This document shows positions 858-56,302 of a stretch of 64,000 nt of DNA, piece by piece. How positions within the stretch are numbered: position 1 is the stretch's first letter; each line of letters opens with the position of its first letter. Made by a program: the position numbers and the translations under genes. The notes under the pieces were generated by a model. That model did not search any database, was not told where the DNA came from, and saw only the letters and a list, made by a program, of their open reading frames with translations. The stretch covers positions 114,226 through 178,225 of the forward strand of contig CADAKI010000001.1 in NCBI GenBank assembly GCA_902788485.1, given 5' to 3'. This stretch comes from an uncultured Pseudomonadota bacterium (GTDB taxonomy: Bacteria > Pseudomonadota > Alphaproteobacteria > Rs-D84).

Positions 858-2177
858 TTAATTATTCAAAAATTCCCGCAACGCATTTCCCGACAATCCA
901 ACATTAGAATTTACGCCCGCCGCATCTGAATCAACCACAGATATAATTCTGGGCGACATAAACACAACCAATTCTGCGAATGGACTGACCAATGTTTCCG
1001 GCGTTGTCACAAACGAGTGTGTTGGAATACCGATAATCACATAATTATCACCAACACTGGACGGGATATTAAACGATGTTAATTCGCCATATTTTGTTGT
1101 CAGAACGATTTTTGCATCAATCTTTTGATACCCACCGTAATCGCCATATTTTCCCGTGGCACCGACAACCAAATCTGTTTCCAATCTATCTTCTTTACTG
1201 CATTGACCGATATCAAATTTAGATTGCCATCCGTTTGGAATCGAAAAAGTTCCCTGGGAAATCAAAACAACATTTGATTGTTGTGCCAAAAATTCTTGTA
1301 ATGTTTTCGTGTTTATTTCCGGCCCAACAACCAACGCACGCCCAACAACACCCGGCACAGACATTTTTATATTTTGTTTTCCAAACGCCGGCAATAAATT
1401 CATCCAAATAATCGGGTTGTCTGTTTTTGGATACACGCGATACACATCCATATCCCATGCCAGCATATATTTTTTCGATGCGATATCCGCGATTATGCGC
1501 GACACTTCACGTTCGGTTTGCCAATCACCTTCGAATACAACGGTTTTATCCGACCAATTCACCAACAAATTCCGCACATCCGCGCCATGCATTGCATCCA
1601 ATAACGCCATAATAATCGATTGGTCTTTAGGCATCTTAATCATCCATTTTGCACGATGTTTCAAATGAATTTCCGCCGTCGTTTCATCATAAGAATAATA
1701 TGCACGCCCCATTTTAGAAATCAAATCAACCGTATCTGACAAAGTCCCTGACGCAACATCGCCCGATATTTTTTCAACCAACTGTTCATCCATAACAATC
1801 GCGACATCGGTGCCATCCAACAATTTATTTAACGCCGCCGCCACCGTCATATCTTTAAATTTATACCCCGACACAGACAATTCAGGCAACGGGTCCCCAA
1901 CCCCCAACCGCACAATTTCGATTTTTTCCGCCGGCACAACCGATACAACCGATTGATTATTCCAATCAACCGTGCACCGCATAGGCAATTCAACCGAAAA
2001 CCGTTGTGCTGTATCCGTCGTCAACGCCGCCTTTTTTGGAAAAATAGGCACAGATTTTTCATTTATCACACTGTTTTCAACAACCGTGATTGTATCATAT
2101 TGCGGAATGTTGTCATTTGTGTTTTGGCATGCCGCACACAAAACAACCATAACAAACCCAATTAAAATTTTTTTCAT
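858..2177 (-). CDS. Outer-membrane lipoprotein with a secretin-like C-terminal domain (type IVb pilus PilN/BfpB/TcpC-like)
   Basis: Start at the ATG at 2177, preceded by GGAGG. Signal peptide MKKILIGFVMVVLCAAC carries a lipobox Cys. C-terminus ...ETLVSPFAELVVFMSPRIIS resembles the secretin signature (..ELLVFITPRIV). Size 440 aa. Confidence 0.55.
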   Translation of the reverse strand: MKKILIGFVMVVLCAACQNTNDNIPQYDTITVVENSVINEKSVPIFPKKAALTTDTAQRFSVELPMRCTVDWNNQSVVSVVPAEKIEIVRLGVGDPLPELSVSGYKFKDMTVAAALNKLLDGTDVAIVMDEQLVEKISGDVASGTLSDTVDLISKMGRAYYSYDETTAEIHLKHRAKWMIKMPKDQSIIMALLDAMHGADVRNLLVNWSDKTVVFEGDWQTEREVSRIIADIASKKYMLAWDMDVYRVYPKTDNPIIWMNLLPAFGKQNIKMSVPGVVGRALVVGPEINTKTLQEFLAQQSNVVLISQGTFSIPNGWQSKFDIGQCSKEDRLETDLVVGATGKYGDYGGYQKIDAKIVLTTKYGELTSFNIPSSVGDNYVIIGIPTHSFVTTPETLVSPFAELVVFMSPRIISVVDSDAAGVNSNVGLSGNALREFLNN

Positions 2178-2208
2178 TTTGTGCCTCCTTCCTGTGGCTG
2201 TCATTTAA

Positions 2209-2529
2209 CTAAATATTCATCAATTTTTCAAATTCTTCCAATGTCATTTCGTAAATAGGCTTTTCCGTTGGCGTCACCAAACCTTTGACAGATTCAAATC
2301 GTTCTTCGAAAATTTTTATCACCCGCGCCACATCGGCCCCCACCGGACCGGCCTGTTGTAATCGACGACCATATTCAACAATGTATTCCAACACATCGGC
2401 AATAAAGAATCGACCAACATAGTTATCCATGTCGATACCGCCCTTTTGCACACATATAGCCGCCATTATTGCCAATGTCTGATTGTAAAAATTTGCCAAC
2501 TTGATAAAATTTTGAACTGTAATCGCCAT
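2209..2529 (-). CDS. Hypothetical 106-aa cytoplasmic protein, co-directional and immediately upstream of the secretin gene
   Basis: ORF with no recognisable motifs; 4-nt gap to the secretin gene. Confidence 0.4.
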   Translation of the reverse strand: MAITVQNFIKLANFYNQTLAIMAAICVQKGGIDMDNYVGRFFIADVLEYIVEYGRRLQQAGPVGADVARVIKIFEERFESVKGLVTPTEKPIYEMTLEEFEKLMNI

Positions 2530-2605
2530 ATGATTTTCCCTTACCTATTTTTTTACATTATAAAAACTATTGCCCACCGAACGCAAATGAATTATAATAT
2601 AAAAC

Positions 2606-2986
2606 ATGAAAATAAAACAAATTGCATTATTACTTGCTTTGACGGCATGTGCATCCGCCAACCGGGGCAATATTGATGACGCAACCATTTTGAATTGGGA
2701 AAACGACGCCGTCACAACCGAACAATTTGTTCGCGACCATAAATCATGCCTGGGAATCCGTTCCAATGATTACGCACCGCGTTCACGTATTGCACGATTA
2801 TTATTACCAAATCAAAACGACCAAATGCCGAATTGGGACGGCATATGGGTCACATTTCAATCAAATGAATACCGCGATGTCGGTCAACGCGCATTGATGT
2901 CTGTTCCCCGGAACAAGGCATCCAAAACCGTCGGTGCATATCGTCGTTGCATGTTGCGCCGTGGGTATTTATTGCGCGCGATGTAA
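2606..2986 (+). CDS. Hypothetical lipoprotein (126 aa)
   Basis: Signal peptide with lipobox MKIKQIALLLALTACAS. Confidence 0.5.
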   Translation: MKIKQIALLLALTACASANRGNIDDATILNWENDAVTTEQFVRDHKSCLGIRSNDYAPRSRIARLLLPNQNDQMPNWDGIWVTFQSNEYRDVGQRALMSVPRNKASKTVGAYRRCMLRRGYLLRAM

Positions 2987-3031: not shown

Positions 3032-3721
3032 ATGCGTGATATGAGGCGCTCTATTTATTTTTGGATATGTTTTTGCATTGCCATAATAATGGCGATATAT
3101 TTTGCATCACGAATAATAATGGTTGCGATGGGACATGGCGCCGCGTCTAAATTACACAAAACCCAAATTGTATCTGATGCCGAAAACAAAGATATGACGG
3201 CATTATCTGCCGCCGTTGCATTACCAAAAAACACACATATTTACAGTGTATCTTTGAACGACATCAATGAAAATTTGTTATCTGTGCCTGGTGTAAAAAA
3301 TGCCGCCACCCGCCGATTACCAAATGGGAATTTAATCATACATGTATCACACCATCATTTTGTTGCCACATGGACCGATGGCGAAAACTATTTTCCATTA
3401 TCTGACGACGGAACAATCGCGAATAATCCATCCGAAACACGACCTGATACCGCACTGTTATTCCGCGGCCCGGTCCCGACCGACATCACCGAAATCACAA
3501 ATGCCGCAAATGATATGATTTCCGAAATCGACTATATTGAATGGATTGAAAATCGCCGTTGGGATATACACACAAATGGTGGCATCACAATAAAATTACC
3601 TGAATCCGGTTTTGCATCTGCAATCGCTGGTTTAATAACATTGAACAAAAACAACAACATTTTGGGACGCGACATTCGTGTTATTGATATGCGCGACCCT
3701 GCACGCATTTTGGTTAAATAA
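3032..3721 (+). CDS. ftsQ: Cell division protein FtsQ
   Basis: N-terminal TM, then a POTRA/FtsQ-type periplasmic domain; sits immediately upstream of the ftsA homolog (conserved dcw order). Confidence 0.75.
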   Translation: MRDMRRSIYFWICFCIAIIMAIYFASRIIMVAMGHGAASKLHKTQIVSDAENKDMTALSAAVALPKNTHIYSVSLNDINENLLSVPGVKNAATRRLPNGNLIIHVSHHHFVATWTDGENYFPLSDDGTIANNPSETRPDTALLFRGPVPTDITEITNAANDMISEIDYIEWIENRRWDIHTNGGITIKLPESGFASAIAGLITLNKNNNILGRDIRVIDMRDPARILVK

Positions 3722-3724
3722 AAA

Positions 3725-5497
3725 ATGAATTTATCGGACTCTTGCTTTTTATGCCTTGATATCGGAACATCTTGCACCCGTGGTGTCGCACATCGTATTC
3801 GAAATGGGAAAATTGCAAAATCCGCAACCGCAATGTGCGACAATTTTAACCAACAATTCGCAATAAAATCTGTGATTGATAACTTGGAACACGAAATCGG
3901 CACCCATTTCGAAGACGCATACATCACCGGCAATTTTGGTAAATCTGAATTTTTACGCCCGCGCCAAAGCACATTGTGGAACAACGAACATAAAATCACA
4001 GAATCCGACATCCGTGTCCAAATTTCTAAAATAGAATTTCCAGATGGCTTTTCACCAATTCATATAATCCCATTACAATATGACACACCATCTGCACGCA
4101 AAATTGCAACGCCGATTGGTTATACCGACCATCAATTATTATCAACATTTGGCGTGATATGTTATGAAAACACCCGATTGAACGAAATTGTATCATTATT
4201 ACACAAGGCGCACATCCAATACAACGGCATGTTTGACCCGGGATATTTATTGGCACAAAACTTGCGCAAACCGGGTGAAACAATATTGTTGATTGACCTG
4301 GGGGCTGAATTTTCATCTATATCAATATGGAACAATCGTGGTGTGTTGTGGCACAAAAAATTACCGATTGGCATGTCCAATATAACAATGGATTTATCAA
4401 AATCATTAAACATCGATTTTGACGAGGCCGAAAGAATAAAACGCCAAACCGCAAATTTAATTCCACGCGCAATGGACCGTATGACGCCGGCCGATACCGC
4501 ATACGATTTCACCCGTGGCGATGTGAACGATATTGTTGTCCCAGATATTGTTGATATAATCGGACAAATTAAATCCGCATCCATGGACGCCGTATCAAAA
4601 TTATTACCCACCCGTATAATTGTCAGTGGTGGCGGCACACAAATTGACGGCGTTGTTGATTTCATAGGAAACGCATTTGCCATACCCGCCGAAAATCATC
4701 ATGCCGACGCAACAATAACCGCACTGTCTGATTATATATGGAACTCTGCGGCAAACGCCCGCGCGGCATACGCACAAAAAATGGCGCGTCATGAAAAATA
4801 CATAAACAAAATAAAAAAATTATTTACCACGCACCCCAAAAAGAAAAAGCCAAAATTTATACCAATCGCACCATCAACATTATGTTTTAATATGTATTCA
4901 CCTGCGACATATAAATTATTTGATGACGCGGGCATATCGACAATTCATGTTGATATAATGGACGGTTTTTATGTATCACGCGTGGCGGGTGGCATACATG
5001 AATTAAAAACAATTCGCGCAAACACACGCGCGCACCTGCATGTTCATTTAATGACCGAAAACCCGGCTGTATGGGCGGCCAACGCAATCCAGGCGGGCGC
5101 CGACACAATTATATTATCATTAAACACATCTGGGGTTCGGGCGGCTCTGCGCGGCATACGCGCAACCGGGCGCCGTGCCGGCGTTGCGATAAATCCCGAT
5201 ATTCCATTATCAACATTGGTGCCATTACTGCGCGATATTGACGAGGTTATGGTAATGGCGGTCCAACCGGGCGCCGCGGGTCAAGAATTCGACACATCTG
5301 TTCTGCAAAAAATTTTGGCCCTGGCCACAACACGCAAAAAACACGGATTAAAATATATTATATCTGTGGACGGCGGCATAAATGAAACAACCGCACAAAA
5401 ATGTTGGGACGCCGGCGCCGATTTATTGGTCAGTGGTTCTTATTTACAACATGCCCACGATTTTGCATTGGCTGTTCAAAGTTTATTAAAAAAATAA
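3725..5497 (+). CDS. ftsA: FtsA-like actin-family division protein (about 375 aa) fused in frame through a KKKKPK linker to a complete ribulose-phosphate 3-epimerase (Rpe) domain
   Basis: N-terminal part aligns with FtsA blocks (LCLDIGTS.., IIPLQYD, LLIDLGAEFSSISIW, IIVSGGGTQIDG). C-terminal 215 aa aligns with Rpe (IAPSTL..HVDIMDGFYV..HLMT..AVQPGAAGQEF..SVDGGI). No stop codon or obvious start separates them. Confidence 0.7.
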   Translation: MNLSDSCFLCLDIGTSCTRGVAHRIRNGKIAKSATAMCDNFNQQFAIKSVIDNLEHEIGTHFEDAYITGNFGKSEFLRPRQSTLWNNEHKITESDIRVQISKIEFPDGFSPIHIIPLQYDTPSARKIATPIGYTDHQLLSTFGVICYENTRLNEIVSLLHKAHIQYNGMFDPGYLLAQNLRKPGETILLIDLGAEFSSISIWNNRGVLWHKKLPIGMSNITMDLSKSLNIDFDEAERIKRQTANLIPRAMDRMTPADTAYDFTRGDVNDIVVPDIVDIIGQIKSASMDAVSKLLPTRIIVSGGGTQIDGVVDFIGNAFAIPAENHHADATITALSDYIWNSAANARAAYAQKMARHEKYINKIKKLFTTHPKKKKPKFIPIAPSTLCFNMYSPATYKLFDDAGISTIHVDIMDGFYVSRVAGGIHELKTIRANTRAHLHVHLMTENPAVWAANAIQAGADTIILSLNTSGVRAALRGIRATGRRAGVAINPDIPLSTLVPLLRDIDEVMVMAVQPGAAGQEFDTSVLQKILALATTRKKHGLKYIISVDGGINETTAQKCWDAGADLLVSGSYLQHAHDFALAVQSLLKK

Positions 5498-5526
5498 AAA
5501 ACAACACAAGATTTGTGTTGTTTTTT
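5498..5526. terminator. Bidirectional rho-independent terminator
   Basis: caacacaag-att-tgtgttg hairpin followed by T6, between convergent rpe-fusion and tsaE. Confidence 0.6.
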
Positions 5527-5579
5527 ATCGCGACGGAGCCGCAGGCGCAGACGGATTTATTACATATACTCCCATACGA

Positions 5580-5990
5580 TTATTTAATCTCAACCTTTCT
5601 GCCCATATCACAATCAACACCACAATTTGAAATATAAACATGTATCGTATTCGGTGGCAACATCGCCGATGCAACATCCGGCCATTCTATCAATGTAATA
5701 TCATTTTGAATTGCATGATCCAAACCGATTTCAATCAATTCCGATGCATCGGTAATTCTGTATAAATCAAAATGAGAAATTCCATCATAATTTTGCACAA
5801 TTGTAAATGTTGGCGATGGCACAACGGTATTTTCACCGCGTAATTGTTGAATTATTGCACGCGCAATCTCTGACTTTCCCATACCCAAATCACCATGCAA
5901 CGCAACCGTCACCGGCGCATGCAAAGTTTTTGCAAATTCGCGCGCCCAACAACGTGTTGCATTTACATCTGGTAAAATAACTTCACTCAT
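5580..5990 (-). CDS. tsaE: tRNA threonylcarbamoyladenosine biosynthesis ATPase TsaE (YjeE)
   Basis: 136 aa with P-loop GDLGMGKSE and YjeE-family layout. Confidence 0.75.
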   Translation of the reverse strand: MSEVILPDVNATRCWAREFAKTLHAPVTVALHGDLGMGKSEIARAIIQQLRGENTVVPSPTFTIVQNYDGISHFDLYRITDASELIEIGLDHAIQNDITLIEWPDVASAMLPPNTIHVYISNCGVDCDMGRKVEIK

Positions 5991-21194: not shown

Positions 21195-21222
21195 AAAAAA
21201 AATCCCCAAACGGGGATTTTTA
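21195..21222. terminator. Bidirectional terminator hairpin atccccaaacggggat flanked by A8 and T5
   Basis: Exact reverse complement of the hairpin at 22601-22626. Confidence 0.65.
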
Positions 21223-22491
21223 TATTGATATCGCCTCGCCGGCTTCGCGTTGTCGTGCCAACAATGCCGCCTTGCGTTTTGCTTCTTTTTCTTGGGCGCG
21301 TTTTAAATTTGCATTTGCGTTCTCAATGGCTTCCCTCATTTTAACCTTAACCTCACCTTTTTTAAACACACCGGCCTTACCAACTTCTTGTTCGCCAATT
21401 TCATACGCCGCAATCACCTCTAATGCACTTTGCAGCATTGAATTTATCGATGCCACCGCCGCGCGTTCATCATCATATTTTCTCAACAACCGGGCGCGCA
21501 ATTCTTTTTCGTGTTCGTAATTATCACGATATTGGTCACGCGATTGTGTTAATTTGAAATTATCCGATAATAATTTTTCATTTGCATTTATCAAATCTAT
21601 ATTTTGTTGTTCCAAAGTATTTTCATAATTTGTCACATATTGTGCATCACCCGACCCAACAACATTATCAAAATCATATTTTTCTTTGGCGATTTCTTGC
21701 CATTGATTTAACAATTTATAAAATTCTTTATTTACTTCTTTATCTTTTATTGCCTTACTCAATTCTGGACTTAAATCACGCCCATCCAATACAGTTCTAA
21801 TAAGAGACCCTGGTTTACTTAATATAACGCCAACATTATCTGTATTTGGCACATCTTTGTTTAATTCCACATCCAAATCTTCATCGGTTTTTGCAAATAC
21901 ATCATTTATAATTTTCAACGCATTGTCTTGTGTTTCTGCAAAATAAATCATTTCCAAAATATCGTCTGTTGTTGCATTTTGATTATTTGCCAACATTGTC
22001 GCAATATCTTTATAAACAGACATCCGTTTTTTCGGTATTTGCAATCCATATTTTTCTGCACACGGACGTTTATAATCAGATGTTGATTTCAAAATTTTTA
22101 ATGCATCATAAACCAAATCTTTATCTTTAAATTTATTCAAACGATTTAAAAACATTTGCGAATACGATGTATTGTCATACCCCCGCGAATCACCATCGTT
22201 TTTCGGATAAAAAACCTGCTCTGCGACAAATTTTACCGTATTTTTCACATCATCCGTGGCACTTGGATTTTTATGCAATTCAAACATAAATCCTAACACA
22301 TCCTCCACAGATTTTGATTTAATTTTTCTGTGCACTTGTAAAAATTCTTGAAAATTTGCATCTGGATTAAAACCCGTTTCAACCGCTTCCTGCCAAAATC
22401 CTTTATAATCTTCGTAATACAAATGCCACTCTTTACGCAAATCTATATATGCACGAACAAATGTTTCCAAATCAAATATAAAATCCGCCAT
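21220..22491 (-). CDS. Hypothetical 423-aa cytoplasmic protein with a C-terminal coiled coil (possible secreted effector or cargo)
   Basis: No signal peptide; C-terminal K/E/R-rich heptad region; no recognisable family. Confidence 0.45.
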   Translation of the reverse strand: MADFIFDLETFVRAYIDLRKEWHLYYEDYKGFWQEAVETGFNPDANFQEFLQVHRKIKSKSVEDVLGFMFELHKNPSATDDVKNTVKFVAEQVFYPKNDGDSRGYDNTSYSQMFLNRLNKFKDKDLVYDALKILKSTSDYKRPCAEKYGLQIPKKRMSVYKDIATMLANNQNATTDDILEMIYFAETQDNALKIINDVFAKTDEDLDVELNKDVPNTDNVGVILSKPGSLIRTVLDGRDLSPELSKAIKDKEVNKEFYKLLNQWQEIAKEKYDFDNVVGSGDAQYVTNYENTLEQQNIDLINANEKLLSDNFKLTQSRDQYRDNYEHEKELRARLLRKYDDERAAVASINSMLQSALEVIAAYEIGEQEVGKAGVFKKGEVKVKMREAIENANANLKRAQEKEAKRKAALLARQREAGEAISI

Positions 22492-22600
22492 GAAAAAACT
22501 CCATTTTACTTACGCGATATATTATACCACAAATCATACACAAAAACAAAAAGATTCTTGTCCATATTATGGATAATTCATCAATTGAACTTTGAAAATT

Positions 22601-22626
22601 AAAAAATCCCCGTTTGGGGATTTTTC
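22601..22626. terminator. Bidirectional terminator hairpin atccccgtttggggat flanked by A6 and T5
   Basis: Inverted twin of 21195-21222. A palindromic-element arm fragment ttgaactttgaaaatt lies immediately 5' of it. Confidence 0.65.
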
Positions 22627-22663
22627 CGGGCCCCGCGAAATTCCACCAGAATTTCGTGGGTAC

Positions 22664-23734
22664 TCAACCCAACATCATTGTAATTTGGTCTTGCATTTGA
22701 AATGTTGCCAACACAACCCACGCGATAATCACCGACACCAATAAAATGCCCACACTGTTTAACGCACTTGATAACGATTCCATTTTATTCACAGAATTTT
22801 GCAAATAATCCCGTGCAACATTTGAAATATTTAAACTAAAATCGTTCATATCAGAATAAATTGTTAAATCGCCAATCAATTCATTGTTTGGAAAATTGCG
22901 TCCCGTATTCGCCAACGCGACACCCAAATTATCACCATTTGCAATATATCGCAACGCCGATTCCAAAATATCACGCAAATACCTGTTTGAATTGTCCGCC
23001 AATATACGCATCGCATCCGGCACAGACACCCCGGCCGCAACAAAAGCCGACAAAGACATCATCCACCCAACCGACACATGAATTTTATAAATATTCCACG
23101 GCGCAATATTATCAAATTTTGTGCGCAACCATCCCGTCCAATTTGGCAATGATAACCACACCAATAAACACAATCCAACAAAAACACCTGCAATAATATG
23201 CCAATATTTTATTGAAAATTCTGACACCAAAATCAATAAATTTGCCGCCCCCGTCCATTGAACATTTGGTCCGGCAACCGATGCCAACGGCGGCACCAAA
23301 TAAACACCAACCATAATAATAATTGCAAATGTCAAAACCAACAAAAACAACGGATACGCGATTGCATTACGCATCGCCCGTTTAATTTTATTTATACCAA
23401 CAACAACCGTTTCCAAATTTTCCAACGAAACGATTAAATCTGACACATTTGCAGATGTCAATAACAGCGTCTCGTTTTCTGGCAACCATCCACGCGTTGC
23501 ATCTGCAAAAGACAAACCTTGTTCCAAACCTTTTTGCCATTGACGCATGGCGATTGCATAGGGTTCATCGGGCTTTTTACCATTATGCGATTCAATTTGT
23601 TCAATCCGCCCCAACGCATCCATCAAAGAAAAATTATTACGCAACAAAGACGCCAATTTGCGTATCAATGCCAAACGACGTTCTGTATTCCATTTGAATA
23701 CCATTTTTGCATATAATAATTCTAAATTTTCCAT
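22664..23734 (-). CDS. GspF/PilC-family inner-membrane platform protein (type IVb PilR/BfpE/TcpE-like)
   Basis: 356 aa; cytoplasmic N-domain, three hydrophobic segments and T2SS-F-like architecture; immediately downstream of the GspE-family ATPase. Confidence 0.6.
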   Translation of the reverse strand: MENLELLYAKMVFKWNTERRLALIRKLASLLRNNFSLMDALGRIEQIESHNGKKPDEPYAIAMRQWQKGLEQGLSFADATRGWLPENETLLLTSANVSDLIVSLENLETVVVGINKIKRAMRNAIAYPLFLLVLTFAIIIMVGVYLVPPLASVAGPNVQWTGAANLLILVSEFSIKYWHIIAGVFVGLCLLVWLSLPNWTGWLRTKFDNIAPWNIYKIHVSVGWMMSLSAFVAAGVSVPDAMRILADNSNRYLRDILESALRYIANGDNLGVALANTGRNFPNNELIGDLTIYSDMNDFSLNISNVARDYLQNSVNKMESLSSALNSVGILLVSVIIAWVVLATFQMQDQITMMLG

Positions 23735-23739
23735 TTTAT

Positions 23740-25374
23740 TTAATATTCCCCTGGCCTATCCAGTAAACCAACCCATCGTTCTAATTCATCAACACCAATA
23801 ATACCTTTTAACATCAATTCCGCCGCAGATTCTTTCAATGTGCGACCATCCATTTCTTCCAACCAATATTTCACCGCCAAATCGGTATTGCCCGAAATCG
23901 CTAGTCGTAAAAATTCACTGTTTGTGATAATGATTTCGCCGGCCTTGATACGCCCCAATGTACCCGAACCATTACATTCACTGCATCCCGGACCACGGAT
24001 AAATGTTTGCTTTAATCCGATTTCACCAAATGCATCCATAACACGCGAATATGCCGGATGTTCCGGATGATTTGATAACGCCTCGCGACAATGTGGACAT
24101 AATTTTTTAAACAAACGCATTGAAACCAAACCACGCATCAATGTTTCTTCTTTTAACTTGAACGCTTCGACCCCCATATCCAACAAACGCGTCAACGCCG
24201 CCATCGCAGAATTCGCATGTAATGTCGTCCACACATTATGCCCCGACAACGCACCACGCACCGTCAATTGTGCCGCGGCCAGTGTTCGAATTTCCCCAAC
24301 CATAATTGTATCCGGGTCACTGCGTAATGCGGCGGCCAACGCCTCGGTATATTTTTCATCGCGTTGTTCTTCGTTCATCGCATTGACGACCGGCATTTGA
24401 TGCGCACCAAAAATTTTTTGTTCGACCGGATTTTCCACCGTAATCATATTGATTTCGTAATTGCGTTCTTTCAACATCATTGACATATTTCGAACCAATG
24501 TTGTTGATTTACCTGAACTGGTTGGACCGGCAACAATCACCAACCCAGTTGGATACGCACGCAGCCGTTCCAACAATTTACGTTCATATTCGCCAAATTC
24601 TTGTTCGGTTTTTATACCTTCGGATGGGTTATCATATAATAATCGCATAACGACATAACGCGTTCCATATGCGATTGGATTAAATTGCATACGAATACTG
24701 GTGACACCATCTGGTAAAAACAAATCACGCGTTCCACGCAATGGGGTGCGACCATCTTTTTGTGCCGATTGATATTCATTTTGTGCATAGTTTGCATTTG
24801 AAATATCCGCCGACGCAAACGCCGCACGCACAAACGATTCACCCCACCCGGCATTATATTCCAATACGGGTTGCATACTGCCATCGATACGAAAATAAAT
24901 TGTTGTTTGGTCAGAAACCTCGATATGCACATCCGACACCTTTTGTGCCGCCGCCCGTGCGATAATATCGACAAAATCTTTCTGCATTTGGTTATCGAAA
25001 TCCGCATGGTTATGAACACCACCACCCAAACGCTCTTCGTATGTTTTATAAATCGCCGAAACCAAACCCAAATCAGAATAAAACGGTGTTTTCATCACCA
25101 TATTGCGTTCACGCAGCAAATCCAAAAACGCCAACACGCGCCCATCATATTTATGCGTGCGCGATATAATAATTTCACCACCTGAAAAATATGCGACCAA
25201 ACTTTGGACATCACGCGACAATTGCAACCGCGCACCCGTCGCCGTCAACAACCGATTACCATTAGAATACAAATAATCCACAATTTCTTTGATTTCTGCA
25301 TTTTCCATTGCCACCGGCACAGACGGTGTTTTTGAAAAATTTGCCTCGTCAAAATTTTTATTATCTTTACTCAT
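23740..25374 (-). CDS. GspE/PilB-family secretion ATPase (type IVb PilQ(R64)/BfpD/TcpT-like)
   Basis: 544 aa; Walker A VIVAGPTSSGKSTTL, Asp and His boxes (TLHANSAMAALTRLLDMGV), C-terminal tetracysteine CPHC...CSEC zinc motif. Larger than VirB11 and carries the Cys motif VirB11 lacks. Confidence 0.8.
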   Translation of the reverse strand: MSKDNKNFDEANFSKTPSVPVAMENAEIKEIVDYLYSNGNRLLTATGARLQLSRDVQSLVAYFSGGEIIISRTHKYDGRVLAFLDLLRERNMVMKTPFYSDLGLVSAIYKTYEERLGGGVHNHADFDNQMQKDFVDIIARAAAQKVSDVHIEVSDQTTIYFRIDGSMQPVLEYNAGWGESFVRAAFASADISNANYAQNEYQSAQKDGRTPLRGTRDLFLPDGVTSIRMQFNPIAYGTRYVVMRLLYDNPSEGIKTEQEFGEYERKLLERLRAYPTGLVIVAGPTSSGKSTTLVRNMSMMLKERNYEINMITVENPVEQKIFGAHQMPVVNAMNEEQRDEKYTEALAAALRSDPDTIMVGEIRTLAAAQLTVRGALSGHNVWTTLHANSAMAALTRLLDMGVEAFKLKEETLMRGLVSMRLFKKLCPHCREALSNHPEHPAYSRVMDAFGEIGLKQTFIRGPGCSECNGSGTLGRIKAGEIIITNSEFLRLAISGNTDLAVKYWLEEMDGRTLKESAAELMLKGIIGVDELERWVGLLDRPGEY

Positions 25375-25378
25375 GTTA

Positions 25379-26107
25379 TTACCGACTGGATATATTTAAA
25401 TTTTGTGTTTCGCCATCTTTGCTGAACACAACACCATCTTCCAAAGATATCGATTTCACAGTAAACCCGTTGATTTTTTTACCAACACTAACGCGTTTTG
25501 TTTGACCTGTTTCCAAATCAGACAATGTTGCCTGTAATTGATTTCCGGCCCCCATAACATTTACCAATTTATACATTGACGCAATATCTTCATCGTATTC
25601 TTCGCGTTGCTTTTTTTGTGCCACAGGTTTCTTTTTTGGTGTTGCCGCCGCCACATCTGATGTATCACCCGATTCTGCGGCCTCGGTTGCCGCCGCAATC
25701 GCGCGTTTTTCTTGTTCTATTTTCGCGGCCTCGGCCTCTAGGCGCGCTTTTTCATTTTGCAAAATTTGTTGTTCTTGCTCGGCGCGTCCCGACAGTGTAT
25801 CCATTTCCATTTGCAGTTTAATTTTTTCCGCCGCCAATCTGTCCAAATCTAAATCCAGTTGTGCGCGTTCTTTTTCTAACTCCATCAAAACTTTTTCTTG
25901 TTCCAAATCCGTAATTTGTTGAAACACCGTTCCATCAACATTATATGCACCAACCGCCATTGCAGACACATCATCCGCGACATCTGATTCCACATCCTCG
26001 ACGAATTCATCGGTTAAAATTTCATCATCAACCGCCCACGCATTTGGCACAACCAAAAACGCAAACAAAACGAACAACACACCAAATAATTTATTTTTAT
26101 TTTGCAT
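25379..26107 (-). CDS. Periplasmic coiled-coil protein with a PilP-like C-terminal beta domain (BfpU/PilP-type assembly component)
   Basis: Signal peptide, long coiled coil, C-terminal YKLVNVMGAGNQLQATL..VGKKINGFTVKSISLEDGVVFSKDG resembling the PilP secretin-binding domain. Confidence 0.5.
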   Translation of the reverse strand: MQNKNKLFGVLFVLFAFLVVPNAWAVDDEILTDEFVEDVESDVADDVSAMAVGAYNVDGTVFQQITDLEQEKVLMELEKERAQLDLDLDRLAAEKIKLQMEMDTLSGRAEQEQQILQNEKARLEAEAAKIEQEKRAIAAATEAAESGDTSDVAAATPKKKPVAQKKQREEYDEDIASMYKLVNVMGAGNQLQATLSDLETGQTKRVSVGKKINGFTVKSISLEDGVVFSKDGETQNLNISSR

Positions 26108-27452
26108 AGATTATAACCTCATAGTTCCAATTTCGTGTAACCACATTCCACGCACAACGCGTGATATAAAAACCACCAAAATCTTCAAACATTTTTGTAA
26201 ATTGCATTGGCAATAATTTTGAAGACACTTCGACCTCGACAACATTTAATTGTGCGACATCAACCCCATTTGTAATTGTATCAACAACAATTTCTGTTTT
26301 TACATCCATATTCATTGATTGAAACAAACTGACCACATTTCTTTCAACGGTTGCGGCATCACGCGCATCCATTGACGCCGCACGCGCAACATCCGGCAAA
26401 GACACCGACACACTCAACATGTTATCGTTTATTTCTGTGATTGTTGCACCCGGCAGAAAATCCGCCGCCATATCATAAAAAGTATCCAACGAACCGAATT
26501 TTCTGTTAAATTCCGCGGTGGCAGTTGTTTCATCACACGACACATTTGATTGCACCCACCCAGTAATCGGTTGCATTAAAAATCCGACCGCCTGATAACA
26601 TTGTTTTGCGCGTTGTTCCGGCACCGGCAAAGAATTATATGGCAACACCAACGGTTGAACATCGGGTTGTTTTTTGATATCAAACTGTTTGTCCAACTCT
26701 TTATTTTTTTCATCAATCTGGCGATTGTATTCATCAATCACAGATTTATCAATCACGGCCGGCCTTTTTGCCGTCATTTTATGAATTGGTTCATTAAACA
26801 ATAAATAAATTCCCGCAAAAAAAGCACACAATAAAACGACAGAAAACAATCTGGCGCGCCACAAATTTATTGCACGCAATTTATATTTTGCTTTGCGTGG
26901 CAAAACACTTGCCAAATCTTTTTCCATCGCACGCGGTATTGCCCATGCGTTTGGCGCAATAAACGCCGACCAATCCGGTATTTTTGAAAACCGTGCATAT
27001 TCGGCGCGCGCATCTGATTCATTATTAAACAGTTTATCCGCCAAAATAATTCCATTACGCACCGCCAACAAATAATATTTTTTATCAACAAAAAACACCG
27101 CCAAAAACGAAGAATATTCACTAAACGCGTCAACAATTTCGGCGGCGGCGGACGGCATACCCGACGCATATTGACGTGCCCGCGGTGCCAACCCAATCAT
27201 AGACCGATATTCAACATACAATTTCGCACGGGTATTTGAATTACGTGCCAACACACCGGCATATCCGCGTGATGTATAACCAACCGCCACCGGTTGCCAA
27301 AACAATCCGGCCGCAAAACGCCGCTTGTTCACGCGAAAAACTTCACTGAAAGTATTATCACGATTTTTCGAAAAATTTCCAAATATCCAACCCATTGAAA
27401 AATTCATCTCTCCTGTTTTATAATTATAACAAAAAAATACAATCTTTGGCAA
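26097..27452 (-). CDS. Bitopic inner-membrane assembly protein (R64 PilO / BfpC / TcpR-like)
   Basis: 451 aa; about 190-aa cytoplasmic domain, single TM LFSVVLLCAFFAGIYLLF, about 230-aa periplasmic domain; its place in the operon matches pilO/bfpC. Confidence 0.45.
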   Translation of the reverse strand: MPKIVFFCYNYKTGEMNFSMGWIFGNFSKNRDNTFSEVFRVNKRRFAAGLFWQPVAVGYTSRGYAGVLARNSNTRAKLYVEYRSMIGLAPRARQYASGMPSAAAEIVDAFSEYSSFLAVFFVDKKYYLLAVRNGIILADKLFNNESDARAEYARFSKIPDWSAFIAPNAWAIPRAMEKDLASVLPRKAKYKLRAINLWRARLFSVVLLCAFFAGIYLLFNEPIHKMTAKRPAVIDKSVIDEYNRQIDEKNKELDKQFDIKKQPDVQPLVLPYNSLPVPEQRAKQCYQAVGFLMQPITGWVQSNVSCDETTATAEFNRKFGSLDTFYDMAADFLPGATITEINDNMLSVSVSLPDVARAASMDARDAATVERNVVSLFQSMNMDVKTEIVVDTITNGVDVAQLNVVEVEVSSKLLPMQFTKMFEDFGGFYITRCAWNVVTRNWNYEVIIYAK

Positions 27453-42822: not shown

Positions 42823-43971
42823 CTAACTTCCTTTGGCAGATAATTGTTGGTCTTTATTTATATGTGCATTTTGGCATAATCCAAACCCAAACATCAGTGA
42901 AAGTAAACTGCTGCCACCGAAAGACATCAACGGCAACGGCACACCAACGGTTGGTAATAAACCCAACACCATGGATATATTTATAAAATAATAAACGAAA
43001 AAGTTCAACATAAAACCAAAACACACCAATTGCCCAAATCTGTTCTTGCATGTTTTTGCGCACCAAAACAGCACCAAAATAATCCATGTATATATCATCA
43101 ATAATAAAAACGCGCCGATGAAACCAAATTCTTCACCCAGCATAGTAAATATGAAATCGGTCTGTTTTTCGGGTAAAAAAGATTGTTGTGATTGTGTGCC
43201 CGACATATAACCTTTGCCGAAAATACCGCCCGAACCGAACGCAATTTTCGCCTGGTTTATTTGATATCCGGCACCTTTTGCATCATGGTCAGGGTCCAAA
43301 AAAGTAATAATACGGTCTCGCTGATAATCGTGTAATCCACCAAACCACACAACCGGCGCCGCCATAACACCCAAAATTGCAACGATGATAAACCACTTTT
43401 TTTGTGCGCCAACAATATAAAATATACCAAACATAATCATCAACATCGACAAAGCCGTCCCCAAATCAGGTTGCACAACAATCAATGCAAACGGTATAAA
43501 TGTCATACACACCGGCGCAATATAGTTTTTACTTTGCGTCAATTCCACCGAATTCATCCATGCGAAATATCGCGCCAACGCCAAAACCAATGCGATTTTA
43601 ATAAACTCGGACGGTTGAATATTTATAAATCCCAAATTTAACCACCGTTGTGCCCCCATACCAACATCGCCAACAAATGTCACCAAAACAATTAAAATAA
43701 ATGCAATGGTGTAAATTAAATATGCGGACTTTAACCACAATTTAATACTGGAAAACGCAACCCAGAAAAATACAACAAAACCCAATAAAATTTTTATCAA
43801 TTGTGGCCCGGCAAATGGTTGCCAATGCCCCCCACCCGCCGAAAATAACACCATGACAGATATGGCCAAAACAATGCACATAGGTAAAAATAATCCCCAC
43901 AAAAACCGTGACAATTTTTCACCGATTGTCATCATATCTGCATTTGAAACGCGTGTTTGGTGTATCATCAT
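42823..43971 (-). CDS. rodA: SEDS-family peptidoglycan glycosyltransferase RodA
   Basis: 382 aa, about 10 TM, FtsW/RodA motifs; immediately downstream of PBP2. Confidence 0.8.
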   Translation of the reverse strand: MMIHQTRVSNADMMTIGEKLSRFLWGLFLPMCIVLAISVMVLFSAGGGHWQPFAGPQLIKILLGFVVFFWVAFSSIKLWLKSAYLIYTIAFILIVLVTFVGDVGMGAQRWLNLGFINIQPSEFIKIALVLALARYFAWMNSVELTQSKNYIAPVCMTFIPFALIVVQPDLGTALSMLMIMFGIFYIVGAQKKWFIIVAILGVMAAPVVWFGGLHDYQRDRIITFLDPDHDAKGAGYQINQAKIAFGSGGIFGKGYMSGTQSQQSFLPEKQTDFIFTMLGEEFGFIGAFLLLMIYTWIILVLFWCAKTCKNRFGQLVCFGFMLNFFVYYFINISMVLGLLPTVGVPLPLMSFGGSSLLSLMFGFGLCQNAHINKDQQLSAKGS

Positions 43972-45749
43972 TTATCACCCTGTAATAATGTTTTCATAAC
44001 CGCTGCGACGGTTCGTGCGGCGGGGCCACTGCCGCCGGAATGTTCGGTAATAACACATACCGCATATTTTGGCGCATCCAATGGCGCATAACCAACGAAT
44101 AAACCGTGGTTTCGTTTATTCCACTCTAACTGTGATGCAGACAACACGCCCGTTGCGCGTTCGGCTTTCGATATATTGCGCACTTGGGATGTGCCGGTTT
44201 TTCCCGCCATTTTTGCACCATCAATATTTATCGCACTGCCCGATGCGGTTCCACCCGGTTGTGTCACCTGTTCCAAACCATGTTGTACAAATTTGATGTT
44301 TTTTTCACTTAATCCCAACGATTTGAATTTTGGTTTTTCATCACTGTAAATCAATCGTGGCACAACAATTTTATTCGACATCGCACGCGCAATCATAATC
44401 GCCAGTTGCAGACAGTTTGTTAAAATAAATCCCTGACCTATTCCAGAAATCACCGTGTCGCCATGTACCCATTGTGCGCCCACATGTTTTTCCTTCCAAT
44501 ATTTATCAGGTATATTTCCCGCCATTTCTTTTGGAAAAATATCCGTCATATATTTTTCGCCCAGCCCCAATCGTAATGCCATTTTGCGTATAACATCAAT
44601 ACCAATTTTTAACGCCAATCGATAAAAATAAATATCACACGAATGTGCCAACGCGCCCGCCAAATTTACGGTCCCATGACCTTTGTGTTCCCAACAATGA
44701 TATCTGCGGTCGCCGTAATCCCAATATCCCGGGCAATAAACAGTTTCATCCGGGGTGACGGCACCCGATTCCAATGCCGCCAATGCGACAACAATTTTAA
44801 ATGTGGAACCCGGCGGAAATAACCCCTCGACAGTTTTATTCACAAATGGTTTTGTATAATCAGACATCAGTTTTTCAACATATTCATCGGCGTCATCTGA
44901 TGTAAATTTACCCGCATCAAACCCCGGTGCCGATGTCATTGCCAAAATATCACCTGTTTCGATATCCAATGCGACACCACATCCGGCATTATGCTGAATC
45001 AGTGTATCATACAACACGCGTTGCGCATCCCACCGCACAGTTGTTTTAATATCCACCCCCGGCGTTGGTTGAATAAATTGTTCTTCGTCTTCGCCGGTAA
45101 TGCGTCCCACCGCGTTTGACAACATAACCGTTTGTCCGGGTGTGCCGGCCATGTCATCATTAAATCGTTTTTCCAAACCGGTAATTCCGGTGGTAAAAAA
45201 TGGTGCGTTCGCAACCGGATTTTTCGGTGCACCAACATAACCAAAAATATGTGCCCCAGATTCGCCCATTTCATATACGCGTGAAAACCCGGATGAAATA
45301 TGAACGCCGGGCAAATTTTTCGCACTAACCCGTGCCAAGTTTTTCCAATCTGTATGTTCAGAAATCAATACCGGTTGAAATTTTTGCTGTTTTCTAATTT
45401 GTGCCCAAATTCGTTTAAGTGTTTTTTCGCGCAATTTCAAATCCGCAGTCAGTGTGTTTAATAATTCATCCAAATTATCTGTTTCTTCGGGGACGACATA
45501 AATTCGATAAATTGGCGCATCGTGTGATATAGGTATTCCTTCGCGTGATAAAATCTTTCCGCGTTCCGGCATATTGATTTGAATACGAAAAGAATTATTT
45601 TCAGATTTCTTTTTATAATCGCGATAATTAAACACCTGCATTTGCAGCATGCGCAACACTAAAACCGATGTCAAAACCGCACCCGTTGTTAAAAACAGTG
45701 CACTGCGTCGGTCAAATGTATGTCCAACCTCGATATCAATCATCGCCAT
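43968..45749 (-). CDS. mrdA: Penicillin-binding protein 2 (elongasome transpeptidase)
   Basis: 593 aa; N-terminal anchor, SxxK (PGSTFKIV), SxN and KTG motifs. Confidence 0.85.
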   Translation of the reverse strand: MAMIDIEVGHTFDRRSALFLTTGAVLTSVLVLRMLQMQVFNYRDYKKKSENNSFRIQINMPERGKILSREGIPISHDAPIYRIYVVPEETDNLDELLNTLTADLKLREKTLKRIWAQIRKQQKFQPVLISEHTDWKNLARVSAKNLPGVHISSGFSRVYEMGESGAHIFGYVGAPKNPVANAPFFTTGITGLEKRFNDDMAGTPGQTVMLSNAVGRITGEDEEQFIQPTPGVDIKTTVRWDAQRVLYDTLIQHNAGCGVALDIETGDILAMTSAPGFDAGKFTSDDADEYVEKLMSDYTKPFVNKTVEGLFPPGSTFKIVVALAALESGAVTPDETVYCPGYWDYGDRRYHCWEHKGHGTVNLAGALAHSCDIYFYRLALKIGIDVIRKMALRLGLGEKYMTDIFPKEMAGNIPDKYWKEKHVGAQWVHGDTVISGIGQGFILTNCLQLAIMIARAMSNKIVVPRLIYSDEKPKFKSLGLSEKNIKFVQHGLEQVTQPGGTASGSAINIDGAKMAGKTGTSQVRNISKAERATGVLSASQLEWNKRNHGLFVGYAPLDAPKYAVCVITEHSGGSGPAARTVAAVMKTLLQGDK

Positions 45750-46194
45750 GCACCCTTTTTAAAAATCGAGTTATTGGCAAATATAATGCCACAACCCAAA
45801 TAAATACCCATAAACACCGTCCAATCATAATCCACGATAAATTTGTAATCATCAATATAAATAATGCCGCACCCATAAAAATCATAAATGATACAAGTGC
45901 ATTTTTATCAGCATGTTGCAAATCCAAGAAATATTGAAAACCATTGATTGCATACGCAATACAATATGCGCATGTCCAAAATAATTTTGTATCCATATTA
46001 TAATCAATTAAAAAACAAAATATAATCGCCATCAATGGCATCCAATTTATTGGACGCACAAAAGAATAATAAAAAATCGGTATAATCGCCAAAATTCCAC
46101 CCGGATTAAAAATATGTATCTGTAATCGCCACAATATAATCACCGCCAAAAACGGCGACACATCACGCAACCAAGAAACAAAATTTTTCATCAT
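45736..46194 (-). CDS. mreD: Rod shape-determining protein MreD
   Basis: 152-aa polytopic membrane protein between mreC and mrdA. Confidence 0.6.
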   Translation of the reverse strand: MMKNFVSWLRDVSPFLAVIILWRLQIHIFNPGGILAIIPIFYYSFVRPINWMPLMAIIFCFLIDYNMDTKLFWTCAYCIAYAINGFQYFLDLQHADKNALVSFMIFMGAALFILMITNLSWIMIGRCLWVFIWVVALYLPITRFLKRVHGDD

Positions 46195-47051
46195 TTGTAT
46201 TCGTTATTATTATCAAATTCTAAAACCTTGACACGGGAAACGGCGTCCGGCCGCAACACAGACACATCCGTATCATTTTTCATTGTGCCAACCAAAATAC
46301 CATTTGGCAAAACGCCACTGATATTACTGGTTATAACCGTCATGCCACGCGCAGGTTTAAATTCAGGCCGACTGAACAAACCGATTTCCGGGGTTGCCGA
46401 ACCGTCACCCGATAAAAAACCATAAACCTCGTCCCCGGCAATACGAACAGCAATATTACTGTCGGCATCGTTCAATGCGCGTACGCGTGAAAATTCGCCA
46501 CCGACATCCACAACCATGCCCGCCATGATACCATCAATCGATACAACCACCATACCGCGTTTAATACCGTCAAACACACCCTTGTTTATTAAAAAATTAC
46601 TGTGATGCAGTGCCACCGTATCATGAATAACATCCGCCATAATAACATTTTGTGGTGTTGCATGCACGATATCCAGTTCTGATTCCAATCGTTTGTTTTC
46701 CGCCATGGCAACCGTGCAATTATTTTGGTTTTCGCGTAACGCATCCAATTCCGCGCGTAATTTTTCGTTTTCTGCGCGTAAATTTGATAAATCATAAATG
46801 TTTTCAACCGATTCACCCAACGCGCGCACCGGCCAAGTAATAACATTTCCGACAAAATGCGCCACCGGTAAAATAACATGTCCCGCCCAATTTATCAGGT
46901 AAAAATCCGGCTTTGCGACCAACATATAAATAAATACTATTGGCACGGCAGCGGCGGCCGCCACCGATTTTAATAATTTTCCTGTGCGCAAAGATAGTGT
47001 GTTTTTATTCATTTTCACCGTAAGTTTAATGTCTAACAAATCAATATTCAA
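46191..47051 (-). CDS. mreC: Rod shape-determining protein MreC
   Basis: 286 aa; N-terminal anchor, coiled coil AENEKLRAELDALRENQ, beta domains. Confidence 0.75.
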   Translation of the reverse strand: MNIDLLDIKLTVKMNKNTLSLRTGKLLKSVAAAAAVPIVFIYMLVAKPDFYLINWAGHVILPVAHFVGNVITWPVRALGESVENIYDLSNLRAENEKLRAELDALRENQNNCTVAMAENKRLESELDIVHATPQNVIMADVIHDTVALHHSNFLINKGVFDGIKRGMVVVSIDGIMAGMVVDVGGEFSRVRALNDADSNIAVRIAGDEVYGFLSGDGSATPEIGLFSRPEFKPARGMTVITSNISGVLPNGILVGTMKNDTDVSVLRPDAVSRVKVLEFDNNNEYK

Positions 47052-56200: not shown

Positions 56201-56302
56201 ATTCAAAGATTTATGGAAAATATCATCGCCGCGCCAAAATTCGATTACTTGGTGTTCTGTTGCCGAAAAGTCGGCCTTGGGTTCTGTTTTCGGGTATGCC
56301 AT
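53264..56302 (-). CDS. ileS: Isoleucyl-tRNA synthetase
   Basis: 1012 aa; HIGH-type PFANGLPHWGHL and KMSKS-type KFSKSL motifs, editing domain. Confidence 0.95.
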   Translation of the reverse strand: MAYPKTEPKADFSATEHQVIEFWRGDDIFHKSLNKTKLGHPFSFYDGPPFANGLPHWGHLGVSAVKDMVCRYHTMRGEYVERELGWDCHGLPAENSVEKKQGRSAKDIVATNGIETFCDLCRNDVMTYSNEWLRYFERIGRWVDGGDEKGYRTMDKNFMESVIWGLKQLYDKGLLYKDFKVNPYDWKLGTVLSNSEASSEYQDIVDDTVTVWFEMENGDRAIAWTTTPWTLPANSALAVNNNMRYVRMRHDDGHVYVLAESRVKAYDKIFANSENLGTVMGSELVGMHYKPLFPYYTDLAAAGHGLYTVISGDYVSDSDGTGIVHIAPAYGEDDYIVARAIDPQFPIILNVDDYGNFDSTVRDWAGENIFVANPKIIDHLRSTGRLVKKDQHKHSYPFGPRSHEKLIYRATDAWYIDVPKIRERLVEITKNDTTWTSAGNRFMSWIENARPWGISRNRFWGVPLPIWERDGEYKIFGSIAELEEFFGVKINDLHRPTLDALERDGWHRITDVLDCWVESGSMPFASLHYPFENKDVFEKTFPANYIIEGQDQTRGWFYALMVIAVALFDKPAFRVVSANGMIVDENKRKFSKSLQNFVDPTEQLETYGADAIRLFILGSNFMKAEPVGVDKEGKVFGDTIKTILTPLWNAYHFFTLYANAGNITAVADATSTNPLDKYIVAELNEVVRITTDALDEYKPDVAVKEFVRFLDVLNNWYIRRGRARFWDEERDAFNTLYYVLTEFCKLLAPFAPFISEYIYKNLTGAESVHLTDWPVAKNIDRKIVDDMRRVQSIVSVGKQLREQCKLRNRLPLKQITIAGGNMQEYNDIIRDELNVKSVNFVADIATVADLFVYLITPKIGARLGSALREIVPAVKQGNYKIDGDKLIVGEYQLNADEFENRLTVRDGVTGAALPDNTMVVVLDTSITPELVQEGLANDALRFIQDSRKSAGLDVSDRIKMVYSGDDEIVAAVATHNARIMRDALIVDLAHGAASQFTTEIEGHPFAIDIKKA

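Follow-up and report, generated by a model that had tools for sequence, protein, structure and literature searches.

A conserved ftsQ-ftsA::rpe unit in Rs-D84 Alphaproteobacteria joins the division protein FtsA to ribulose-phosphate 3-epimerase

The window, the whole 64,000-nucleotide (nt) stretch of contig CADAKI010000001.1 analysed here (positions 114,226-178,225), comes from an uncultured alphaproteobacterium of the order Rs-D84. Next to ftsQ it carries one open reading frame (ORF) in which the actin-like division protein FtsA is joined in frame to a ribulose-phosphate 3-epimerase (Rpe). The fusion is genuine and old, and it is not an artefact. It is probably best understood as an ancient single polypeptide, arising from a conserved ftsQ-ftsA::rpe unit, in which FtsA is followed by an internal amphipathic and polybasic tether and then by an Rpe barrel that is likely to have a structural as well as an enzymatic part to play. 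FtsA and Rpe are both well-known families; the architecture, the internal FtsA tether and the retention of a variant that lacks the active site are new.

The fusion gene (3725..5497, forward strand) encodes 590 amino acids (aa) plus a stop codon and has no internal stop, and Pfam and NCBIfam find both domains in its product. A reading made from the sequence alone (the sequence-only reading) had proposed just such an in-frame fusion, and it is borne out. Only 3 nt separate the ATG of the fusion from the end of ftsQ (3032..3721, same strand; 229 aa; Pfam FtsQ_DivIB_C at 40.9 bits and a weak POTRA_1 match), and the two genes are likely to be co-transcribed or translationally coupled. Downstream, a hairpin with a 17-bp stem and U/A-rich flanks (5493..5529), picked up in a terminator scan, lies between the fusion and tsaE (5580..5990), which is convergent with it on the opposite strand; the hairpin is likely a bidirectional terminator for both genes. 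A terminator and an inverted tsaE had been named here in the sequence-only reading. An AlphaFold2 model of the fusion built on a 77-sequence alignment has a mean predicted local distance difference test score (pLDDT) of 91 and divides the protein into an actin-like part (aa 1-342, 3725..4750), a long helix (aa 343-367, 4751..4825), a low-confidence basic stretch (aa 368-380) and a barrel (aa 381-590). Taken from the first residue behind the polybasic segment, the Rpe (β/α)8 barrel comprises aa 378-590 (4856..5494).

The same architecture recurs widely. Among 5.8 billion proteins searched there were 739 matches; the best 120 of these range from 99% to 55% identity, contain both domains and are nearly all ~590 aa long, and two shorter proteins among them (554 and 441 aa) look truncated. 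The matches come from independent NCBI, JGI, ENA and Logan assemblies. Among GTDB contigs, taken at one genome per species, 295 candidate stretches encode a relative, and the best 80 of the 295 are all essentially full-length, extending from residues 1-5 to residues 585-590. Had the relatives kept separate ftsA and rpe genes, or had a stop or frameshift been hidden at the junction, these loci should reveal it: all 90 that were fetched contain a single uninterrupted fused ORF of 564-623 aa. The fusion lies directly 3' of ftsQ in 80 of the 80 GTDB loci. An ftsQ gene adjoins it throughout the 90 loci, but the upstream gene in one of them (L087) has no FtsQ Pfam match; measured from the ftsQ stop, the start of the fusion falls in most loci between -4 and +15 nt, and the outliers reach -38 and +54 nt. 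Further out, the neighbours tsaE, uvrB and asmA are rearranged in ~15 of the 80 loci, and the conserved unit is therefore ftsQ-ftsA::rpe.

The fusion also reaches far back. With the FtsA part alone as query against 1.84 billion representatives at 50% identity, proteins of fusion length (552-623 aa) are recovered down to 25% identity, and ordinary FtsA proteins of 400-420 aa appear only below ~80 bits; hmmsearch finds the full Rpe part in every one of the long, deep relatives. The unit of ftsQ and fusion recurs in the deep lineages inspected, with L087 as the exception, and in one of them the order is a possible ftsL, then ftsI, ftsQ, the fusion and rpmB. The GC content of the loci spans 24% to 49%. 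A profile made from aligned divergent fusions retrieved P0144 itself as its only fusion, along with ordinary FtsA.

The carriers are gut and rumen metagenome-assembled genomes (MAGs) of the order Rs-D84, many of them named Candidatus Enterousia, and L056 comes from a closed circular chromosome (958,618 bp). Enterousia is placed in the order Rs-D84 of the Alphaproteobacteria; its genomes are mostly <1 Mb, and it lacks respiration and has a non-oxidative pentose-phosphate pathway without transaldolase (PMC12306168). The same paper makes no mention of FtsA, FtsZ or a fusion. No published fusion of FtsA with ribulose-phosphate 3-epimerase was found in a literature search of incomplete coverage, and the papers on Enterousia and Rs-D84 that it covered name neither FtsA, FtsZ nor such a fusion.

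The gene order ftsQ-ftsA-ftsZ is not found: ftsQ adjoins the fusion, and ftsZ is not within 10 kb of it. The sequence-only reading had remarked on the missing ftsZ after ftsQ-ftsA, and the observation holds both in the window, where tblastn with E. coli FtsZ gives no match over the 64 kb, and in the relatives, where no FtsZ match at E <= 1e-3 is present in the 90 loci, ~1.7 Mb in total. Reduced Alphaproteobacteria, the Rickettsiales for example, commonly have division gene clusters that are broken up, and so the broken order is not counted as remarkable.

The C-terminal half is, as had been claimed, a complete Rpe domain. Pfam Ribul_P_3_epim (PF00834) aligns to aa 382-574 over profile positions 3-197 of 198, at 146 bits against a cutoff of 21.1, and the NCBIfam rpe subfamily model NF004076 aligns to aa 381-587 at 173.3 bits against a cutoff of 165; with the equivalog TIGR01163, the 158 bits scored lie below the cutoff of 212.6. 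In a Foldseek comparison the barrel superimposes on Streptococcus pyogenes Rpe (2fli) with a template modelling (TM) score of 0.92 and a root-mean-square deviation of 1.5 Å over 211 columns, at 36% identity, and many further Rpe structures match after it. Residues S384, H408, D410, M412, H441, M443 and M511, along with P515-G516, G519-Q520, D549-G550-G551 and G571-S572, are invariant in 118 of 118 clusters, these being the full-length clusters of the first protein search and presumably Enterousia. By reference to 2fli we take them to be the His/Asp/His/Asp tetrad for metal binding and acid-base catalysis, the Met cushion, the strand-1 Ser and the phosphate-binding loops. The barrel probably supplies the Rpe activity of the cell, the interconversion of Ru5P and Xu5P. 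In NCBI and JGI the fusion is named "ribulose-phosphate 3-epimerase" and nothing else (P0001, P0009, P0011, P0060, P0143, P0151), and because of this annotation it is presumably what the pathway reconstruction in the literature counted as Rpe.

The N-terminal half is identified as FtsA by profile and by fold. Pfam FtsA (PF14450) aligns to aa 189-326 at 47.9 bits against a cutoff of 31.8, and NCBIfam ftsA (TIGR01174) aligns to aa 44-340. The pLDDT exceeds 90 across most of aa 1-342, and when the model is compared with the PDB by Foldseek, FtsA structures (3wt0, 3wqt, 1e4g, 7q6f, 7q6d) rank first, with target-normalised TM scores of 0.66-0.76 over 350-385 columns. The motif residues D12/G14, D191/G193 and G302/G303 are kept in 117-118 of the 118 clusters, with two single-cluster substitutions. 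Two details of the sequence-only reading require correction. The motif labels "adenosine" and "phosphate-2" were interchanged: in the standard actin/ASKHA naming, DLGAEF is phosphate-2 and SGGG is adenosine. The 1C region was also described as reduced. The model contains a full 1C (SHS2) subdomain, with its strand-strand-strand-helix-strand pattern at aa ~72-148 (approximately 3938..4168, boundaries inferred from the model and the structural alignment), and it is across this region, too, that the 350-385 columns align to FtsA crystal structures; aa 87-339 pair with residues 100-372 of solved FtsA, and the ~20 residues that are missing fall mostly in gaps in 2B, so that a reduced 1C is unsupported. 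The SHS2_FTSA profile gives a weak match in 5 of 18 family members; among deep relatives it is clear in P0145 and P0147 and weak in P0143. Canonical FtsA binds the C-terminal peptide of FtsZ through 2B and recruits later divisome proteins through 1C; for the FtsZ-binding residues of 2B, in a weak alignment at ~15% identity, which is not reliable at single positions, E. coli R300 falls opposite a variable position and E303 opposite D277.

Between the two halves lies the segment that bears on membrane attachment. The FtsA part had been said to lack a membrane-targeting tail; a membrane-targeting helix appears to be retained, but internally, as an amphipathic helix followed by a polybasic run inside a linker that is found family-wide. 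The candidate helix, EKYINKIKKLF (aa 357-367, 4793-4825), has a hydrophobic moment of 0.73, the 10th highest of 580 windows of 11 residues (~98th percentile); the helix of E. coli FtsA has a moment of 0.78. It runs into the flexible segment TTHPKKKKPK (aa 368-377, 4826..4855), where the pLDDT falls to 65-76, the lowest in the model, and which is K/R-rich in the 77 homologues. Across 139 fusion proteins, 16-35 aa (median 31) separate the FtsA core from Rpe; the medians for this segment are 0.72 for the best moment and +11 for the net charge. The tails of 103 standalone FtsA proteins have a median best moment of 0.69, located at the extreme C-terminus in most of those inspected, and their motifs (IKKIRNFISDFF, KIKKIINWIKNNF) resemble the KIxKLF of the fusion. 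Within the linker R346, Y349, R352, R355, I363, L/I366 and F367 are conserved, ahead of the K/R-rich residues 368-377, and the junction that follows, F378-I-P-I-x-P-S-T-L-C-F, is invariant or nearly so in the homologues.

Nei-Gojobori ratios of nonsynonymous to synonymous substitution (dN/dS), computed for the window against its relatives, are 0.07-0.13 for the FtsA part, 0.06-0.12 for the Rpe part and 0.10-0.23 for the linker: the values are similar and low in both halves, and therefore both are under equally strong purifying selection in Enterousia. Most deep relatives keep the Rpe tetrad; in some lineages it has decayed. The fusion P0133 (L090; locus GC 24%) has lost H408, H441, D549 and the PGxxGQ loop and has kept the FtsA motifs. 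P0134 and its 75%-identical sister P0295 (GC 25-26%) have lost S384, H408, D410, D549, both phosphate loops and the FtsA motifs, and they are nevertheless 589-590 aa long. This sublineage of 24-26% GC (L081/L082 and L088/L089 for P0134 and P0295, L090 for P0133), whose genomes are probably the most reduced of the group, retains an ORF of 575-590 aa throughout. Of the 14 member sequences in the P0134 cluster, which is seen on contigs of up to 198 kb, 10 are full-length (589 aa); the P0295 cluster has 4 members. Their loci are syntenic with the window, with genes for ~440, ~107 and ~126 aa proteins followed by ftsQ, the fusion and tsaE, and beyond tsaE the L081 locus (P0134) also has uvrB, asmA and aspS. 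Between P0134 and P0295 the dN/dS is 0.35 in the FtsA-like half, 0.29 in the linker and 0.21 in the Rpe-like half. Here a domain of 210 residues has lost its active site and yet stays in frame, with a dN/dS indicative of purifying selection; this hints, at the level of sequence, that the barrel does something besides catalysis, for example in a structural role.

The converse pattern also exists. In the clade of P0143, P0144 and P0151, with a GC content of 49%, it is the phosphate-1 Asp of FtsA that is lost and the Rpe tetrad that is kept, the opposite of P0133, with its intact FtsA motifs and missing tetrad. In the loci L083, L084 and L086 (P0143, P0151) and in P0144, LDIG has become IYFG or IYPG, D191 is replaced as well, and all Rpe catalytic residues are present.

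The account that we favour would run as follows. An ancestral genome of the lineage would have had rpe placed 3' of ftsA, where ftsZ normally sits, and the loss of the spacer and of the stop codon would have made one reading frame of the two; no intermediate, with the two genes side by side but unfused, was found among the loci examined. The FtsA half would act as a membrane-associated, actin-like divisome protein whose former C-terminal helix now lies as an in-plane amphipathic helix at the inner leaflet, reinforced by the Lys/Arg run. The Rpe barrel would thereby be held beside FtsA at the inner face of the membrane, where its epimerase activity would feed the transaldolase-less non-oxidative pentose-phosphate pathway. 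The barrel would also be a structural part of the protein, contributing to stability or oligomerisation; that it has been kept in frame under purifying selection where its active site has decayed makes such an additional role most likely. Rpe enzymes are obligate dimers or hexamers, and for this reason the barrel may link FtsA molecules to one another, a role that could outlive catalysis.

A number of points weigh against this account. Every carrier is an uncultured MAG. The FtsA half scores 87.7 bits with TIGR01174, below the equivalog cutoff of 175.85, as befits a divergent member of the family (with PRK09472 it likewise falls short, at 23.7 bits against 409), and its identity to solved FtsA proteins is only ~15%. 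The predicted TM score (pTM) of 0.62 means that the relative placement of the domains is not confidently predicted. Membrane binding by the internal helix is something we infer from sequence, and helices on the surface of the barrel match or exceed it in hydrophobic moment, so that amphipathicity is not specific in itself; the argument for a tether is carried by where the helix sits, by its likeness in motif to FtsA tails, by the polybasic flank and by conservation. The structural role of the barrel is argued from one pairwise dN/dS in a gene of 20-25% GC, a composition at which the Nei-Gojobori method is biased. A model of the P0134/P0295 type shows the architecture unchanged at a pLDDT of 87, with Enterousia sequences making up most of its alignment. 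On a crude neighbour-joining tree P0133 and P0134 fall together, which may reflect a single event of loss or long-branch attraction.

A bolder extension, which we offer tentatively, is that the divisome has recruited the Rpe barrel as a structural, self-associating module. Contacts between barrels and contacts between FtsA domains would together build a scaffold on the membrane, a function that would persist after both catalytic sites are lost and that might compensate for a divisome that is reduced or poor in FtsZ; in Enterousia the same scaffold would also couple pentose-phosphate flux to the division site.

The fusion could also be neutral, of the "Rosetta-stone" kind: a spacer was deleted in a shrinking genome, the halves work independently, the barrel has no part in division, and the site-less variants are on their way to being lost. 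Strong genome reduction does favour accidental fusions (PMC12306168). Each half retains its own catalytic motifs and evolves at a similar rate, as two independent proteins would, and the model (with the pTM given above) offers no confident contact between the domains. What makes a neutral origin and persistence doubtful is the absence of any fission or loss of the barrel in ~20 deep clusters at 50% identity, with FtsA parts down to 25% identity, or in the 90 loci. The linker, moreover, stays within the narrow range of 16-35 aa already given, and the genomes of 24-26% GC, in which deletion pressure should be highest, preserve a full-length non-catalytic barrel at a dN/dS of 0.21.

It is improbable that one gene yields two proteins here, an ordinary FtsA and a free Rpe, through cleavage in the Lys-rich linker or through an internal start for Rpe. 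The flexible, low-confidence KKKKPK segment directly behind the amphipathic helix would suit a cleavage site, and there is an in-frame ATG at 4781..4783 (M353), 25 codons upstream of the Rpe core, that was overlooked when the sequence-only reading stated that no start codon in a sensible position precedes that core and that the ATG at 4892 is the first in frame. M353, however, is not conserved, its position being occupied by R, H, Q, A or S in homologues, and no Shine-Dalgarno-like sequence lies upstream of its codon. The ATG at 4892 encodes M390, which is invariant in 77 of 77 homologues and is for that reason a structural residue of the barrel and not a start; it lies past β-strand 1 and the substrate-binding Ser, so that a product begun there would be incomplete. 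A separate Rpe made from either internal start is accordingly rejected. No specific protease or cleavage motif is evident, and a cell that needed the two products separately would have no reason to keep the frame across the lineage.

The possibility that the N-terminal half is some other protein of the ASKHA/actin fold, a PilM-like protein or a pentulose kinase with a metabolic or pilus function, is slighter still. It is prompted by the score below the FtsA equivalog cutoff, by weak PilM_2 and MreB matches, by the presence of type IV pilus and type II secretion system (T2SS)-like genes in the window, and by the metabolic sense that a fusion of kinase and epimerase would make. FtsA is nonetheless the best match by profile and by structure (PilM reaches a TM score of 0.55, below the 0.66-0.76 of FtsA), the 1C subdomain specific to FtsA and PilM rules out sugar kinases, the tail resembles the membrane-targeting helices of FtsA, and the gene starts within a few nt of ftsQ across the 90 loci and follows the possible ftsL, ftsI and ftsQ in one deep lineage; on structure, profile ranking and gene context both identities are rejected. 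An error of assembly, binning or sequencing, with a stop or frameshift missed at 4830-4900, has nothing in its favour except the a-priori rarity of such a fusion and may be set aside, for the same continuous ORF is present in 90 loci and at least 120 clusters from independent NCBI, JGI, ENA and Logan assemblies, the closed 958,618-bp genome included, with the junction FIPIxPSTLCF invariant or nearly so.

Compared with the canonical FtsA of E. coli, Thermotoga maritima and S. aureus (7q6d, 1e4g/4a2a, 3wqt), the fusion shares the fold of subdomains 1A, 1C, 2A and 2B, the phosphate-1, phosphate-2 and adenosine motifs, the gene position behind ftsQ, and an amphipathic, basic helix after the core. 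It differs in that the helix is internal and is followed by an enzyme domain of 213 aa, in that the flexible spacer ahead of the helix is ~10-13 aa shorter, and in that ftsZ does not come next. With canonical Rpe (S. pyogenes, 2fli) it has in common the complete barrel, the tetrad, the cushion of three Met residues and the phosphate loops; unlike that enzyme, the barrel lacks its own start and is attached covalently, through a basic linker, to the FtsA that precedes it, it has FYVD[KR] in place of the common FVPN after MDG and PGAAGQ in place of PGFGGQ, and in the AT-rich sublineage it is a pseudo-enzyme. PilM (5eox, 2ych) has the FtsA-like fold, including a 1C-type subdomain, and gives weak profile matches; its structure and profile scores are lower than those of FtsA, it lacks the membrane helix, and it is encoded with pilNOPQ and not after ftsQ. 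Metabolic enzymes that moonlight in the control of division are known: UgtP of Bacillus subtilis, OpgH of E. coli, and KidO and GdhZ of Caulobacter. The likeness is that a protein of central metabolism, or one derived from an enzyme, is physically associated with the division machinery. The difference is that those four are free proteins that bind FtsZ reversibly in response to a metabolite, whereas in the fusion the link is covalent and is to FtsA, not to FtsZ.

Some further features of the window and of the relatives' loci deserve record. An elongasome cluster occupies 42823-47051 on the reverse strand, comprising mreC (46191..47051), an unassigned 152-aa ORF in the position of mreD (45736..46194), a PBP2-type transpeptidase (43968..45749) and rodA (42823..43971); because the window encodes mreC, PBP2 and rodA, the organism very likely makes peptidoglycan, and peptidoglycan-based rod growth would be retained in a reduced genome. 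Beside ftsQ, in almost every deep lineage examined (window 858-2986; L081, L083, L086, L087, L088, L090), stands a divergent block of genes: on one strand ABC_tran and MacB_PCD/FtsX genes and those for a ~435-448 aa protein (858..2204, reverse strand, weak STN match) and a ~102-107 aa protein (2209..2529, reverse strand), and on the other, before ftsQ, the gene for a predicted lipoprotein of ~124-127 aa (2606..2986, forward strand), replaced in L087 by a 282-aa gene. The three window proteins at 858..2204, 2209..2529 and 2606..2986 match no Pfam family. The type IV pilus and T2SS-like genes (T2SSF, a T2SSE ATPase, a PilO-like protein) and a VirB4/TrbE-type ATPase lie at 21220-27452 and 33684-36107 (reverse strand), and these machineries may matter for an attached or host-dependent way of life. 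Also on the reverse strand, at 53264-56302, is a gene for an isoleucyl-tRNA-synthetase-like protein of 1012 aa with a C-terminal DUF5915, unusually long for a genome of this size. Most genes of the window are on the reverse strand, and GC skew is negative across nearly all of it, turning positive only at ~48-52 kb, where pheS and pheT are on the forward strand. Among the relatives, a record titled "Bacteroides fragilis isolate ... cleanbin" (L036, CAVGNU010000015.1) contains a fully syntenic locus of the Enterousia type with a fusion 58% identical to that of the window; the contig is probably mis-binned or mislabelled.

Few bacterial cytoskeletal proteins have been studied as much as FtsA, and the protein is regarded as ending with its C-terminal amphipathic helix. 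Here an entire lineage serves as a natural experiment: an oligomeric enzyme of 24 kDa has been placed behind that helix and kept there down to ~25% identity in FtsA. The fusion bears on how much freedom the membrane tether of FtsA has, on how genome-reduced gut symbionts divide, and on whether a metabolic enzyme can turn into a structural component of the divisome; a covalent link of this kind would be the extreme form of the links between metabolism and division that UgtP, OpgH, KidO and GdhZ represent. There are practical consequences as well: since the public annotation names only the epimerase, surveys based on gene names would score the carrier genomes as lacking FtsA, and pathway reconstructions would overlook the tethering of Rpe to a division protein.

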